From an uncultured Acidobacteriota bacterium (lineage in GTDB: Bacteria > Actinomycetota > Acidimicrobiia > Spongiisociales > ZC4RG35): a DNA stretch of 64,000 nt. A program made the position numbers and the translations under genes. Location of the stretch: positions 52,889 to 116,888 of the forward strand of contig CAWHEU010000013.1 of assembly GCA_963828465.1 (NCBI GenBank), in the 5' to 3' direction. Under the pieces are notes generated by a model that worked only from the letters and a program-made list of their open reading frames with translations, was not told the origin of the DNA and searched no databases. The number at the start of each line of letters is the position of its first letter. The first letter of the stretch is position 1. Shown in pieces: positions 3,122 to 6,474 of the stretch.

Positions 3122-5107
3122 TCAGGGAGTAGTGGGCGGTGTTGTCGCAGGCGGCACCGTGGTCGGCGGGACGGTCGTCGTCGGCGGGACAGTCGTCGGA
3201 GGGGGCACGGTGGTCGGTGGAACCGTCGTCGGGGGGACCGTGGTCGTAGTCGGGCAGGCAGTGGAGGTTCCCGGGACCATGCACGGGTGGACCTCGTAAA
3301 CAGCGAACCTGGGGGCGTAGCGCACCGTCCACTCCTGTTCCGAGACCACTTCGTTCTCGTCGCCGCCGAGCAGGATGCGCCGCGTAACGGTCACGCTCCA
3401 ACCTCCTAGCTCGGTCTGCGTCTGGTCCTCCTCGTTGATGCCCAAATCCGGGTTCGGCTCATACCGGGGCTCTGGCGGATCGGTCTCAGCGAAGCGATCG
3501 GAGACCGATCCTTTGACGTGGAGGGCGTTTGGCCCGCCTTCGGTGTCCACCCAGGCCCGGCTCTCGCCATCCGATTGCTCGCCCTTCAGAGTTCTGCCGT
3601 CGTTCTCCCCGAATATCCGCACGGTGATCGAGGTGTCGGAGTAGGTGGTGTCGATGAGGATGCCGTTGTCGGTGTTGTTGCGGAACTTGAGGTCGGGGGT
3701 TCGCCAGTTGAGGGTGGCCTCGACGCCTTCGGGATACCTGGAGAAGTAGTAGGAGTGGGGCTTGTGCTCGACGTCCTCGTAGCCACCCCAGAACACAGCG
3801 TTGTACATCGTCGTCGTGAACTGGCTGACCCCGCCGCCGACGGTGTCCTCGACCTCACCGGCGATGATGGTGCCGGCAGGGAGGTAGCCGTCCTCCAGAG
3901 TCCTCTGGCCGACATGGTCGTTGAGGCTGAATGTCTGTCCGGAGCCCACGATGGCCCCGTCGACCTCGTCGGCGATCGTGTGAATGTTCACAACACGGTC
4001 CTGACAGCAGTCGTAGTAGGTGGTGAATTGCGCCACGAGGTGGTTGATGTTGAGGCTCTCCAGATCGTCGGTCGTGACATCGGGCTCCGCGGCCTCGACC
4101 AGCGGCAGCTCCCCGATGCGCTCCGCGGTCATCGCCGCATCCGCCAGCCTCACGGCGGTCTCCTCGGCATCGATCTGGGTGCCGCTGGCGCCTGGGACAA
4201 TCGAGATGCTGTCACCAGAGATCTCGAACGTCGCGTCCACCGGCTCCGCCTCGACCTGGTCTCGTATCGAGTCCAGGTAACTGTCGATCAGCTCAGGGTC
4301 GAAGGAGTTGACGATGCGCGGCTCACTCTCGGTGACCGTCTCGGATCGGAAGGACTCGGTCAACTGGTCGACGGTGAAGACCACATCGACGTCTTCATGG
4401 TCGAGCTGGATCGGCTCGACGAGCATTGCTTGAGCCTGATCGACGGCACGGTCTACGTCTTCATCAGTGAGCACCGGCACGACGGTCGTTGTCGGGATCG
4501 AAGTGTGCTCCGGCTCGAGAGCGAGAAGGCTTGTCTCGACGATGGCCCGGGCCGCCGGTCGGTCGACGCCGGTGCCGACCTCGGGGTAGACAGCAGTCGG
4601 GCGGCCATCGGTGAGAATCACTCCACCCGGTGACGGGGGAAGGGCAATCACCTCGGCGTCCCAGGTGTCGAACACCTCCCCGATAGCCACGTCGTCTATC
4701 GAACCTCTGACGGGCACGTGCACCGTGTCGAATATGTGGCTGATCCACCAGGCGAACTCGGAGATCACGTTGCCGTTGCGCCCCACCAGCAGCGCCTCAT
4801 CGGCGATCGCCTGCTCGTTGATGTCGAGCCCGGCCTCAGGGGGCTGCATGCTGACGAACTTGCCCTCGATGTTGAAGACGGCCGGCCGGCCCAGGTATTC
4901 CTCCTCCACCGCCACCAACGCGCTCAGGGCTTGCTCCTCGTCGAGACCGCCGATCTGGGTGTCGGAGACCTCCACACGGCCCATCACCTCACCTCGGGAA
5001 GCCAGGCGGGTCAGGCCGTAGGCGGTGAGCAAGAGCAGCACGAGACCGGCCACACCCACGATGAGCGCGCCAAGCGGAGTCCTGACTGCGGAGAGATGCT
5101 TTTTCAT
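3122..5107 (-). CDS. VanW-family exported protein with peptidoglycan-binding region and Pro/Thr-rich tail
   Basis: N-terminal TM; RVVNI, FSLNDHVGQRT, GGGVSQFTTTMYNA, HKPHSYYFSRYPEGVEAT, DLKFRN. Confidence 0.88.
   Translation of the reverse strand: MKKHLSAVRTPLGALIVGVAGLVLLLLTAYGLTRLASRGEVMGRVEVSDTQIGGLDEEQALSALVAVEEEYLGRPAVFNIEGKFVSMQPPEAGLDINEQAIADEALLVGRNGNVISEFAWWISHIFDTVHVPVRGSIDDVAIGEVFDTWDAEVIALPPSPGGVILTDGRPTAVYPEVGTGVDRPAARAIVETSLLALEPEHTSIPTTTVVPVLTDEDVDRAVDQAQAMLVEPIQLDHEDVDVVFTVDQLTESFRSETVTESEPRIVNSFDPELIDSYLDSIRDQVEAEPVDATFEISGDSISIVPGASGTQIDAEETAVRLADAAMTAERIGELPLVEAAEPDVTTDDLESLNINHLVAQFTTYYDCCQDRVVNIHTIADEVDGAIVGSGQTFSLNDHVGQRTLEDGYLPAGTIIAGEVEDTVGGGVSQFTTTMYNAVFWGGYEDVEHKPHSYYFSRYPEGVEATLNWRTPDLKFRNNTDNGILIDTTYSDTSITVRIFGENDGRTLKGEQSDGESRAWVDTEGGPNALHVKGSVSDRFAETDPPEPRYEPNPDLGINEEDQTQTELGGWSVTVTRRILLGGDENEVVSEQEWTVRYAPRFAVYEVHPCMVPGTSTACPTTTTVPPTTVPPTTVPPPTTVPPTTTVPPTTVPPATTPPTTP
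3125..3255 (-). repeat. Coding low-complexity repeat (PTTVP)n at the VanW C-terminus
   Basis: PTTTTVPPTTVPPTTVPPPTTVPPTTTVPPTTVPPATTPPTTP. Confidence 0.85.
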
Positions 5108-5211
5108 GGAAGGCCGCCCCAAAACGACCTTTTGCCCGGGGCCAGCGATGGTAATGAGCAGTCCGCCGTTATCCGAAAATGTGACAGGACCGCTCTGTAC
5201 TCTCGATTCGA

Positions 5212-5988
5212 GTGACGATCCGATTCCCGGAAATGGTTCATGGGGAAGCCCTCAAGGTCTCGGCGTCGACCTACGTCACCTTCAAGAAATGCCCTGCCCA
5301 GGCCGGGGCGAGGCTGCAGGGAATCTATGGCCCGGAGAGCCGTCAGTCCTTCCTCGGCATCCTTGCCCATCGGATCTTCAGCCGGCATCTGACCTCGGGC
5401 TCGATCCCGTCCGATGATTTTGTGCAGGCATGTCGTGAGGAGATCGGCGGCTCGAGCCTGAACCACAAGATGGCGGACCTCGAAATGCGTCCGTCCGCCC
5501 TGGCTGCCGTCATCGAGGAGGTCCGTGGCCTCTACGAGCGTTTCACACGGCTGCCCTCCGAAGGGTTCGAAGGCTCCGAGCACAACCTCGAGGCGAACGT
5601 GGCCGAAGGTGTGGATTTGATGGGCACAGTCGATGCGGTTTACCGCGAGGATCTCGGTGGGTTCCGCCTTGTGGACTGGAAGACAGGCGAGCTCACCGAT
5701 CCCGAGGATCAGCTTCTGTTCTATGCGCTCTTGTGGCTGCTCGACAGTGGGGAGTTGCCGGCCTACGTAGAAGCGGTATCGGTTAGGACAGGGGAGCGGT
5801 ATCGAACTGTGCCCTCATCAGCAGACGCGGGGAGGGTGGCCGCCGAGATCGCTGAGCTGGTCGATCTCCTTCGCAACGCCTGGGCGACCGGCGCCGATCT
5901 TCCCCGGACCGGTGGTCCCTGGTGCCGGTATTGCCCGCTTCTCGAGGACTGTGAGGAGGGGAAATCGGTCGGGGCGCTGCTCGATTAA
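5212..5988 (+). CDS. PD-(D/E)XK nuclease, RecB/AddB/Cas4-like, probable 4Fe-4S
   Basis: SAS..FKKCP, G..AH, GTVDAV, LVDWKTG, QLLFYAL, CRYCP...C. Confidence 0.85.
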   Translation: MTIRFPEMVHGEALKVSASTYVTFKKCPAQAGARLQGIYGPESRQSFLGILAHRIFSRHLTSGSIPSDDFVQACREEIGGSSLNHKMADLEMRPSALAAVIEEVRGLYERFTRLPSEGFEGSEHNLEANVAEGVDLMGTVDAVYREDLGGFRLVDWKTGELTDPEDQLLFYALLWLLDSGELPAYVEAVSVRTGERYRTVPSSADAGRVAAEIAELVDLLRNAWATGADLPRTGGPWCRYCPLLEDCEEGKSVGALLD

Positions 5989-6003
5989 CAACACCCCGAC
6001 CGA
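5962..6003 (-). terminator. Hairpin/terminator of the minus-strand micropeptide transcript
   Basis: Minus strand TCGGTCGGGGTGTTGTT-AATCG-AGCAGCGCCCCGACCGA-TTT: 17-bp stem whose three G.U pairs form only on the minus strand. Confidence 0.7.
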
Positions 6004-6011
6004 GATGCCGA

Positions 6012-6071
6012 TCAGCAGCAGCGAATTCCGTCGCCGCCGCCACAGCAGTCGCTGTCATCGAGAAGGATCAT
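6012..6071 (-). CDS. 19-aa Cys-rich micropeptide MILLDDSDCCGGGDGIRCC, putative metalloid/metal chelator
   Basis: SD GAAGGGAG just upstream, upstream TTGACA-17-AAGGAT promoter, downstream hairpin, two CC pairs, divergent from arsR. Confidence 0.72.
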   Translation of the reverse strand: MILLDDSDCCGGGDGIRCC

Positions 6072-6086
6072 CACTACTCCCTTCGT

Positions 6087-6138
6087 ATCGATGATCTTCG
6101 ATACATTGATCCTTGTCGATATATCGACTAATGTCAAT
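6087..6138. promoter_or_regulatory. Three ArsR-type operator boxes overlapping divergent promoters
   Basis: 16-bp imperfect palindromes at 6087 (ATCGATGATCTTCGAT), 6105 (ATTGATCCTTGTCGAT) and 6123 (ATCGACTAATGTCAAT), exact 18-bp period. Plus strand TTGATC-17-TAATGT; minus strand TTGACA-17-AAGGAT. Confidence 0.75.
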
Positions 6139-6144
6139 ATGAGA

Positions 6145-6474
6145 ATGGAATGTTGTGAGCCGCTGTTTGGCGGGGTCCTGGAGGAGGAGGGAGCTACACG
6201 GACTGCTGCCATGTTTGCCGCGTTGGCGGATCCGGTCCGTCTCAGGATCGTCTCGATGCTGGCGGCCGCTCCAGAGGGGACGGCCTGTGGCTGCGAGCTG
6301 GAAGACCCGCTCGGGCTGGCTCAGCCGACCGTGTCCCACCATCTCCGCATCCTGCGCGAAGCCGGCCTCGTCGTTGGAGAGAGGCGGGGGCGATGGGTCC
6401 ATTACCGCGTCGTCCCGGAACGTCTCGATGAGATCAGGGACGCCCTCAGCCCACCCGTCCTAGACCCCGTCTAG
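6145..6474 (+). CDS. arsR: ArsR/SmtB metalloregulator with N-terminal CC (alternative start 6139)
   Basis: MECC; FAALADPVRLRI, ACGCEL, LAQPTVSHHLRILREAGLV, RRGRWVHY. Confidence 0.9.
   Translation: MECCEPLFGGVLEEEGATRTAAMFAALADPVRLRIVSMLAAAPEGTACGCELEDPLGLAQPTVSHHLRILREAGLVVGERRGRWVHYRVVPERLDEIRDALSPPVLDPV

Follow-up and report, generated by a model that had tools for sequence, protein, structure and literature searches.

We found that the window, the whole 64,000-nucleotide stretch analysed, carries a short open reading frame (sORF) divergent from an ArsR/SmtB repressor gene, and comparison of related loci indicates that it is a real, conserved, unannotated gene under protein-level purifying selection. 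The repressor gene that it adjoins belongs to an ArsR clade with paralogues that control ars genes. Its product is most likely a tiny arsenite-binding peptide switched on by arsenic, and we put the probability that arsR and the sORF together form a two-gene arsenic(III)-responsive module at roughly 55%.

The sORF, MILLDDSDCCGGGDGIRCC, lies on the minus strand at 6012-6071, with its ATG at 6071 and 19 codons followed by TGA at 6014-6012. A Shine-Dalgarno sequence (SD), GAAGGGAG (6077-6084, minus strand), stands 5 nt upstream of the ATG. Further upstream on the same strand are a -35 hexamer TTGACA (6132-6137) and, after a 17-nt spacer, a predicted -10 hexamer AAGGAT (6109-6114). The predicted leader is ~30 nt long, and the start is SD-led, not leaderless. 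The ArsR/SmtB repressor gene occupies 6139-6474 on the plus strand (111 aa from ATG 6139), behind a predicted promoter TTGATC-17-TAATGT (6106-6134, plus strand) that is conserved in relatives. The -10 hexamer of the sORF is weak, with 3/6 consensus matches, and the list from a promoter consensus scan contained TCGACA-17-GATCAT instead of TTGACA-17-AAGGAT; the predicted arsR promoter was likewise absent from that list. TTGACA was found in 32 of the 33 loci examined. In 22 of 28 Acidimicrobiia loci it stood exactly 66 nt upstream of the start codon, and xAxxAT followed 17 nt past it in all 28. A GGAG/AGGA-type SD was present 3-10 nt upstream of the start in 32/33 loci.

Two operator-like palindromes lie between the genes. 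A perfect palindrome, O1 (GTCGATATATCGAC, 6115-6128), fills most of the spacer in both divergent promoters, while O2 (GTATCGA-N6-TCGATAC, 6085-6104) falls within the predicted 5' leader of the sORF. The arsR -10 overlaps the sORF -35 and the arsR -35 overlaps the sORF -10, so one repressor bound at O1 would block both promoters. TCGAT/ATCGA repeats recur in all related loci. Within the 3.07-Mb source genome O1 is unique and the O2 core, TATCGA-N6-TCGATA, occurs once; no further copy that would mark a second regulon member was found in this 92% complete assembly. The looser pattern TCGATnnATCGA has 13 matches in the same genome. The claim that the peptide is the only visible local target of the repressor holds in the sense that there is no second operator copy in the 92%-complete genome, and in that sense alone.

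Downstream of the sORF is a terminator hairpin followed by TTT (5962-6003, minus strand), with a 17-bp stem (6003-5987 paired with 5981-5965), a loop at 5986-5982, and TTT at 5964-5962. The folding energy is -36.2 kcal/mol on the minus strand (z -5.9, with none of 200 shuffles as good) and -26.3 kcal/mol on the plus strand (z -2.7). The strand asymmetry originally attributed to G.U pairs is borne out here; as a family feature, a strand-specific terminator found no support, the sORF-sense strand being the more stable in just 17 of 28 loci. The hairpin is common to the sORF and a convergent nuclease gene, whose last codons contain the plus-strand arm and whose stop codon (5986-5988) falls in the loop region. 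Among 26 loci, 6 of the 12 consensus pairs showed compensatory double changes. The promoter hexamers, SD, reading frame, 17-bp hairpin and TTT were all found where the original prediction had placed them, and its description of a complete, unannotated mini transcription unit stood up to every check made.

To characterize conservation of the sORF, 30 ArsR loci were fetched for 41 relatives. As had been anticipated for the DNA opposite ArsR homologues, a Cys-rich sORF lay beside ArsR in 22 of the 30, namely all 21 of the genus and one of another family. Six further loci, from a class sample and a collection scan, brought the Acidimicrobiia set to 28. No two of these share a nucleotide sequence, and together they encode 21 distinct peptides; the SD, start, CC-GG...CC and TGA are kept in every one, beside an orthologous ArsR, in line with the proposed tie to the divergent repressor. 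All length changes (54-81 nt) are in-frame. The four cysteines of the two pairs (4/19 residues) and the TGA are invariant at the amino-acid level, with third positions varying (TGC/TGT 16:12; Gly codons GGC/GGT/GGA), and the acidic N-terminal half and Gly linker are conserved as well. Codon changes between close, equal-length relatives were 14 synonymous versus 5 nonsynonymous, against a synonymous fraction of 0.23 expected from random change (rough binomial P 4e-6; relatedness of the loci inflates this and all other counts). The sORF is still kept where ArsR has diverged to 67% within the genus, or to about 50% in another family.

The exact DNA pattern was found in one copy each in 23 of 31 genus genomes (reversed control, 0), and a ...CCCG variant in two more. 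The sORF was not found in the remaining 6/31 and is therefore dispensable. A search of the whole 3.07-Mb genome for CC-x(1-9)-CC-x(0-2)-stop returned five six-frame matches; just one, the sORF, lay beside a regulator, a rarity that speaks against a chance occurrence, and none of the five was a convincing paralogue. In the class sample 10 of 401 genomes matched, versus ~17 matches for the reversed control, and ArsR adjacency alone separated seven true cases from one ArsM tail and two chance matches.

The upstream frame is open in all loci, and two longer products in the same frame were considered. A 66-aa ORF from ATG 6212 was rejected on the grounds that the SD and ATG downstream are conserved and that the upstream part is operator DNA with no period-3 variation; a 41-aa ORF starting from a TTG inside TTGACA was rejected on the same grounds. 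Both products were absent from the protein collection. A recent remnant of arsM, or of another deleted gene, was rejected in view of the sORF's own start and SD and of purifying selection across the family over the range of ArsR divergence given above. The sORF may still have arisen from a Cys tail at an earlier time.

One RNA-library contig (X16) covers 5841-6091, including the sORF, and a second (X18) comes from a relative with an in-frame 3-nt insertion and reaches 6136, upstream of the predicted transcript start; both are from one study, and such contigs cannot show strand, ends or induction and may reflect DNA carry-over. Two others (X19 and X20; four runs in all) cover only parts of arsR or DUF1697, and parts of the stretch are without cover. 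All 10 product sequences looked up, each of at least 20 aa, were absent from a collection of ~15 billion predicted proteins. At E up to 10, none of four related-locus peptides of 20-31 aa matched a family in Pfam or NCBIfam, bacterial metallothioneins of the SmtA/BmtA type included (the 19-aa peptide of the window itself is too short for this search). No description of such a peptide was found in the literature searched.

The repressor was assigned to the ArsR family by its matches to HTH_5 (PF01022; 57.4 bits, cut-off 22, E 1.4e-15) and NF033788 (98.4 bits, cut-off 55), in agreement with the original identification of this neighbour. Its score against the Rv2640c-family model NF041413, 94.5 bits, is below the cut-off of 155, and it was not assigned to that family. 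The protein has cysteines at positions 5, 6, 50 and 52, an N-terminal pair plus a CxC in helix 3, and most orthologues begin at the equivalent of ATG 6145 with M-E/D-C-C. Its nearest solved relative is CgArsR (6j0e, E 2.2e-18), in which the As(III) ligands are Cys15, Cys16 and Cys55 (PMC11868830). The N-terminal ECC aligned to CgArsR residues 14-16; Cys50 and Cys52 occupy the helix-3 CxC position, four residues away from the Cys of the CgArsR chain, and do not align with Cys55. The As(III) sites of ArsR proteins have been described as type 1 (C32/C34/C37), type 2 (C95/C96/C102) and type 3 (C15/C16/C55') (PMC11868830). By the positions of its cysteines, the arrangement here looks like a cross between types 1 and 3.

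We then considered the genes that face related repressors. ArsR paralogues sharing the CCxP...CxC pattern were divergent from an arsenite methyltransferase gene at three loci that scored over the NCBIfam cut-off, and a fourth arsM-facing locus (L029) was identified only by sequence likeness to another (L028). Paralogues with the same pattern also faced ArsI/CadI genes (over the cut-off) and arsenate-reductase-like genes (under the cut-off). Every recognisable effector beside the same-pattern paralogues was an arsenic gene (arsM, arsC-like or arsI/cadI). In a 101-genome Chloroflexota sample, six ArsM-like proteins ended in GCCGGxGCC; the two tailed proteins that were scored were over the NCBIfam cut-off for ArsM, and the tail lay beyond the end of the model. 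One Acidimicrobiia protein ends as those ArsM tails do, and two ArsR proteins end in ...WEDCCGGGxCC, which is nearly the core of the sORF. Because the paralogues face arsM, arsC-like or arsI/cadI genes and ArsM proteins carry a CCGGxGCC tail, As(III) is indicated: among metals and metalloids at large, it is the one that this context singles out as the likely ligand.

ArsR-linked relatives of the sORF unit were also found in three Chloroflexota lineages, where the partner ArsRs have the classical CxCDxxxCC site, and a similar unit occurs in Microcella. The units of other phyla end in terminators of their own and lie among different genes, and the same peptide motif is encoded there by unrelated nucleotide sequences; ArsR alone is constant across the lineages. 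These are examples rather than a census: the collection scan covered at least 120 stretches, with 80 loci among the matches listed, and most of the matches listed were FmdB-like zinc-ribbon tails, ArsM or ArsR tails, or chance.

The same architecture could instead respond to and bind one of the soft metals Cd, Pb, Zn, Hg and Cu, the peptide being a true micro-metallothionein under a CadC-like sensor. The four cysteines of the repressor also fit Cd/Pb sensors, since an N-terminal pair with a helix-3 CxC resembles the alpha3N site of CadC. CmtR and SmtB models and structures match the repressor weakly, and four thiolates suit tetrahedral metal sites. Against this, the effectors beside the same-Cys paralogues are all arsenic genes, the peptide motif recurs as an ArsM tail, and among solved structures the best match is an As(III) repressor. 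We therefore consider a soft-metal response unlikely.

We give little credence to a regulatory leader with a functionless peptide, in which ribosomes pausing at Cys codons under cysteine or thiol depletion (caused, for example, by arsenite) would hinder the terminator and allow antisense read-through into the nuclease gene. Mycobacterial Cys-rich sORFs are described as cysteine-responsive attenuators (10.1101/834739). In all loci 8-13 nt separate the sORF stop codon from the stem, a distance at which a ribosome terminating there would reach into the 5' arm of the hairpin. However, none of the 28 Acidimicrobiia loci has a same-strand gene downstream, and the next gene in the genus is convergent. 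The SD-led start, the conservation of non-Cys positions and of the amino-acid sequence, and the separate terminators and neighbours of the units in other phyla also argue against it.

A modified or exported precursor or signal, such as a RiPP-like thiol metallophore, would fit a peptide so short and Cys-rich, but the surroundings make it a slim prospect. The flanking genes encode the PD-(D/E)XK nuclease, DUF1697, a VanW-like protein and an FAA hydrolase, which agrees with the earlier statement that no ars effector is adjacent. The maturase, protease or transporter gene expected next to a RiPP precursor was found neither within ~3 kb of the sORF nor as a conserved feature of related loci, the 19 residues include no signal peptide, and the neighbours vary between lineages with ArsR as the sole constant. 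It is equally improbable that the frame is untranslated and open by chance within a conserved DNA or RNA element (operator flank, terminator context or small RNA): the region is short, with operator and terminator sequences under constraint on either side, but synonymous changes are in excess, no length change breaks the frame, conservation extends to the SD and start but not to the freely varying spacer from stop to hairpin, no Rfam covariance model matched 5800-6300 on either strand at E up to 1, and other phyla encode the same peptide motif in unrelated DNA.

Four parts of the arsenic-responsive module are inferred: that ArsR binds O1 and O2, that As(III) induces the unit, that the sORF is translated and that its peptide binds As(III). 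ArsR would occupy the TCGAT/ATCGA palindromes O1 and O2. Since O1 occupies the 17-bp spacer shared by the fully overlapping divergent promoters, one bound repressor is proposed to silence both arsR and the sORF. As(III), possibly also Sb(III), would bind the thiols of the N-terminal Cys-Cys and helix-3 CxC and take ArsR off the DNA. A transcript of ~140 nt would then be made, translated from the strong SD and ended by the hairpin. The 19-residue product, with two vicinal Cys pairs on a flexible Gly-rich linker, may hold As(III) by three of its four thiolates; it would thereby act as the metal(loid) chelator, or micro-metallothionein, first suggested. It could buffer free arsenite, protect protein dithiols, or pass As(III) to another protein. 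As free As(III) falls, ArsR would again repress both promoters. A ribosomal peptide is an expensive means of one-to-one chelation, and nothing shows what would become of the complex.

The arsenite efflux proteins Acr3 and ArsB were not found in the source genome (92% complete), and Acr3 was found in just 7 of 31 genus genomes. We suggest, tentatively, a wider class of ars genes, so far undescribed but widespread across phyla, to which the sORF may belong and whose members would encode ribosomal, phytochelatin-sized As(III)-binding peptides. Such peptides would be a free-standing form of the Cys tails of ArsM and ArsR, and might provide pump-independent, first-line arsenite buffering or hand-off under direct ArsR feedback in lineages mostly without an arsenite pump. 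Few resistance systems are as well studied as ars, yet gene callers miss this component. Should the peptide bind As(III), bacterial arsenic defence, which is so far described in terms of efflux, reduction and methylation, would gain a chelation or hand-off arm. A role would also be suggested for the Cys tails of ArsM and ArsR, at present unexplained, and the repressor and peptide would make a minimal natural pair of sensor and binder for use in biosensing or in capturing arsenic.

The closest known parallel is SmtB-SmtA of Synechococcus, in which an ArsR/SmtB repressor controls a divergent metallothionein gene. As in that system, the repressor adjoins a small Cys-rich putative binder as its apparent main local target, with the predicted operator in the shared intergenic region. 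Unlike SmtA, with about 55 residues, the sORF peptides have 17-26 residues; they consist of Cys pairs and a Gly linker rather than a zinc-finger-like fold, and their context indicates As(III), not Zn or Cd. AzuR-NmtA of Anabaena shows the same repressor-metallothionein arrangement (PMC8790569).

The sORF also resembles the polycysteine sORFs of mycobacteria (Canestrari et al., bioRxiv 10.1101/834739), which are likewise short, rich in Cys, unannotated and from Actinomycetota. Those attenuators are described as leaderless, first in an operon, and controlling downstream genes through ribosome pausing, whereas the sORF is SD-led, predicted to be repressor-controlled, and followed directly by a terminator with no downstream gene; it thus has neither the leaderless start nor the operonic genes of that class.

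The GCCGGxGCC-stop ending of ArsM is the same as the core of the sORF, but the ArsM tail is tethered to its enzyme by a ~30-residue linker. No paper on the role of this tail was found, so it offers no tested function to borrow. ArsD, a metallochaperone for ArsA with a thioredoxin fold and about 120 residues, carries As(III) via vicinal Cys pairs, and phytochelatins are thiol-rich chelators of As(III) made enzymatically from glutathione, not on ribosomes. The sORF peptide is like phytochelatins in size and like ArsD in its vicinal Cys pairs.

In ArsR proteins the AsS3 site for As(III) is built from a vicinal Cys pair and one more Cys at a distance of a few residues, as in AfArsR (Cys95-Cys96-x5-Cys102) and CgArsR (Cys15-Cys16 plus Cys55') (PMC11868830), and a free 10-residue AfArsR peptide with CC-x5-C forms such a site alone (PMC11212059). 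Some ArsR proteins end in ...DCCGGGxCC, which is likewise close to the sORF core. Unlike these sites, the sORF motif is a separate gene product with a second Cys pair, and its As(III) binding is predicted.

The sequence architecture of the arsR-sORF module, its conservation and its arsenic context were observed directly. The original prediction described a complete minus-strand transcription unit, and we found all of its elements in the sequence, divergent from an ArsR/SmtB regulator gene (6139-6474, plus strand). The -35 hexamer TTGACA (6137-6132) is followed after 17 nt by the -10 hexamer AAGGAT (6114-6109), the SD GAAGGGAG (6084-6077), a 19-codon sORF (ATG at 6071, TGA at 6014-6012; product MILLDDSDCCGGGDGIRCC) and, eight bases past the TGA, a 17-bp hairpin (6003-5965) then TTT, all read on the minus strand. 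Two operator-like palindromes were read in the same region: O1, a perfect palindrome (GTCGATATATCGAC, 6115-6128) that fills nearly the whole 17-nt spacer between the sORF -35 and -10, and O2 (GTATCGA-N6-TCGATAC, 6085-6104). The plus strand of this region can be read as a predicted arsR promoter, TTGATC-17-TAATGT, directly 5' of the arsR start; therefore the -10 of each promoter overlaps the -35 of the other. The two promoters appear to be fully superimposed (window 6106-6137), with the O1 spacer common to both. A consensus promoter scan listed neither divergent promoter and gave a different pairing instead. The symmetric layout around a single palindromic spacer is kept across the genus.

From this arrangement we infer ArsR-DNA binding, induction, translation and As(III) binding by the peptide, as follows. 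ArsR on O1 would block both overlapping promoters, As(III) would release ArsR, and the short sORF mRNA would then be translated. The micropeptide would tie up As(III) via three thiolates, and the drop in free As(III) would restore repression. A free 10-residue CC-x5-C peptide derived from AfArsR forms an AsS3 site, with As(III) held by three thiolates, unaided (PMC11212059), and therefore a 19-mer with CC-x7-CC is a chemically plausible As(III) binder.

To place the regulator, we compared it with solved structures, among which the As(III) repressor CgArsR was closest (6j0e, E 2.2e-18). The ECC of the window ArsR aligns to CgArsR residues 14-16, and the As(III) ligands of CgArsR are given as Cys15, Cys16 and Cys55 (PMC11868830). 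The remaining two Cys occupy the helix-3 CxC position known from the classical R773 site, so that the site would be a hybrid of both. CCxP...CxC was common to all 30 aligned ArsR proteins. Six of the 8 ArsR loci that lack the sORF had an ars gene at, or just past, its usual position, and no ars gene was recognised in the other two. Arsenite methyltransferase was found in L022, L024, L028 and L029 (three over the NCBIfam cut-off, L029 assigned by likeness to L028), followed in L024 by an arsenate-reductase-like gene. L023 had an arsenate-reductase-like gene ~200 nt upstream of arsR, below cut-off, and L030 an ArsI/CadI enzyme beside ArsR, over cut-off. The gene of this last enzyme (1913-2317) runs divergently to a paralogous ArsR, and with its ...DAACC-stop ending the enzyme is a further arsenic-related protein that terminates in a Cys pair. 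The hybrid Cys site may also be compatible with a Cd/Pb-type reading, and a micro-metallothionein for soft metals is the leading alternative to an arsenic binder, though an unlikely one.

As predicted, no ars effector was found among the flanking genes in the window, which encode a convergent PD-(D/E)XK nuclease, DUF1697, a VanW-like protein and an FAA hydrolase. Pro, Thr and Val are abundant in the long C-terminal tail of the VanW / PG_binding_4 protein (3122-5122). Acr3, ArsB and ArsM were not found in the 92%-complete source genome; its one arsenate-reductase-like gene is on another contig and has no operator beside it. Of 31 genus genomes, 7 had Acr3. The sORF is also present in six of these 7, which leaves 19 of 25 sORF genomes in which Acr3 was not found. 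The module looks self-contained because O1 and O2 each occur only at this locus in the source genome. A self-contained module would suit a buffer more than a chaperone that feeds a pump; the incompleteness of the genomes makes this a weak argument.

The nuclease gene (window 5212-5988; C-terminal Cys cluster WCRYCPLLEDC) reaches into the hairpin. One arm of this covarying terminator is formed by the last seven codons of the nuclease, so the same bases are under coding and structural constraint. Folding of the RNA gave -36.2 kcal/mol (z -5.9) on the sORF strand versus -26.3 kcal/mol (z -2.7) on the opposite strand. Across loci, the hairpin keeps 12 pairs, with compensatory double changes in 6, while the stop-to-hairpin spacer is free to vary in sequence and length. 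The sORF could instead be a leader in which ribosomes pause at Cys codons and transcription then runs antisense into the nuclease gene; we consider this improbable.

Of 41 related genomes, 39 had an ArsR homologue, and 30 of the loci were fetched. The sORF was at the same position in all 21 genus loci (ArsR identity 100% down to 67%) and in one locus from another family (52%), and was not present in the remaining 8. The expected Cys-rich sORF opposite ArsR was thus found in 22 of 30 fetched loci, and in 28 loci in all with six more from a class-level sample and a genome-collection scan. (The set includes L013 (G018) and L158 (G042), from genomes marked unpublished; no conclusion depends on either.) These are 28 different nucleotide sequences of 54, 57, 60, 63, 66 or 81 nt, encoding 21 different peptides of 17-26 residues. 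Both Cys pairs and the TGA were invariant, the second Cys codon was split between TGC (16 loci) and TGT (12), and the third base of Gly codons varied. The anticipated synonymous-site variation was also seen: 11 comparisons between close relatives of equal length gave 14 synonymous and 5 nonsynonymous codon changes, against an expected synonymous fraction of 23% under random single-base change (rough binomial P 4e-6, which ignores transition bias and some relatedness). TTGACA and the SD were each found in 32 of 33 loci examined. Among the 28 Acidimicrobiia loci, TTGACA was exactly 66 nt 5' of the start in 22, and the hexamer 17 nt past it was xAxxAT in all. The sORF is covered by RNA-library contigs, all of one study, and a 3-nt in-frame insertion marks the one that comes from a relative. 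These contigs are silent on strand, ends and induction, and one extends upstream of the predicted start. That the stretch is an untranslated element is very improbable in view of the excess of synonymous codon changes.

The DNA pattern TGCTGYGGNGGN{3,24}TGCTGCTGA matched exactly once in each of 23 of the 31 genus genomes, with 0 matches for the reversed control. Two more genomes carry a ...CCCG variant, so the sORF is present in 25. In an even class-wide sample, 10 of 401 genomes had matches and the reversed control gave ~17, so the pattern alone is unspecific at this scale. Judged by ArsR adjacency, 7 were true (six from the same family, one from another), one was an ArsM tail and two were chance. 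Loci among the matches listed from a scan of 185,579 species genomes serve as examples. Among these and a follow-up sample, ArsR-linked sORFs occurred in three Chloroflexota lineages (products MRHESCDCDCCTDCCGGGCC, MRRTDDCCGGGCGTGCC, MTRNDGCCGGGGCCEGCC and MTILVFETEVCCGDCCGGGGCC), with partner ArsRs carrying the classical CxCDxxxCC motif. The three units inspected whole each have an SD, TCGAT-type palindromes and their own terminator, with TTGACA in the divergent ones; in a fourth (G448), TTGACA and SD are visible. In a Chloroflexia genome (L062 / L177, 1365-3181), DUF47 (PhoU_div) and a PHO4 phosphate transporter follow the ArsR-divergent sORF and hairpin by ~130 nt on the same strand, a possible arsenate/phosphate link. 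The promoter, the SD and the MDDGCCGGGEC... start recur beside ArsR in Chloroflexota locus L172 (G492, 1100-1300); there the frame continues beyond the second Cys block and may be a longer or disrupted variant. Microcella alkaliphila (L071, 2560-2700) has a 14-codon sORF, MSDLDGCCGGGLCC, with TTGACA, several ATCGAT repeats and an SD. No ArsR was found by tblastn anywhere in this 8-kb locus, and all 4 HTH_5 genes of the genome are on other contigs.

The peptide core recurs as the extreme C-terminus of arsenic proteins. In 101 Chloroflexota genomes, 6 of 11 pattern matches were ArsM-like proteins ending GCCGGxGCC (L169, L170, L171, L174, L176, L178); L043, L079 and, from Acidimicrobiia, L152 are further carriers. 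The tail lies ~30 residues past the methyltransferase domain; L170 and L178, the two scored, exceeded the NCBIfam cut-off for ArsM, and in both the model ends before the tail. Its role seems to be undescribed. Two ArsR-like proteins (L086, Acidobacteria MAG; L103, Holophagaceae MAG) end in ...YLWEDCCGGGxCC-stop, by sequence nearly the micropeptide core fused to a sensor. A further set of open frames (L033, L050, L053, L088, L100, L104, L105, L107 from Nocardia, Streptomyces and Aldersonia; L055, L085) has an N-terminal part that resembles a zinc ribbon (CPxGH...DTVKLL or CxxCG) and finishes with GGGCCGGGGCC-stop; we take these to be probably FmdB-type. Streptomyces L048, L082 and L108 have conserved ~56-codon open frames ending ...CCPYPPPIGCCGGGAYCC-stop.

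Pfam and NCBIfam models gave 0 matches to four family peptides of 20-31 aa, Rfam gave no family match at the sORF locus, none of ten product sequences was in a collection of ~15 billion proteins, and we found no description of such a micropeptide in the literature. A modified or exported peptide, the remaining alternative, is very improbable. Among known systems, the mycobacterial polycysteine attenuators share with the sORF-ArsR unit none of their defining features that could be compared. The unit would work like SmtB-SmtA, and we rate it as a repressor plus thiol-rich binder, a kind already known, with a micropeptide that is outside any known metallothionein family.
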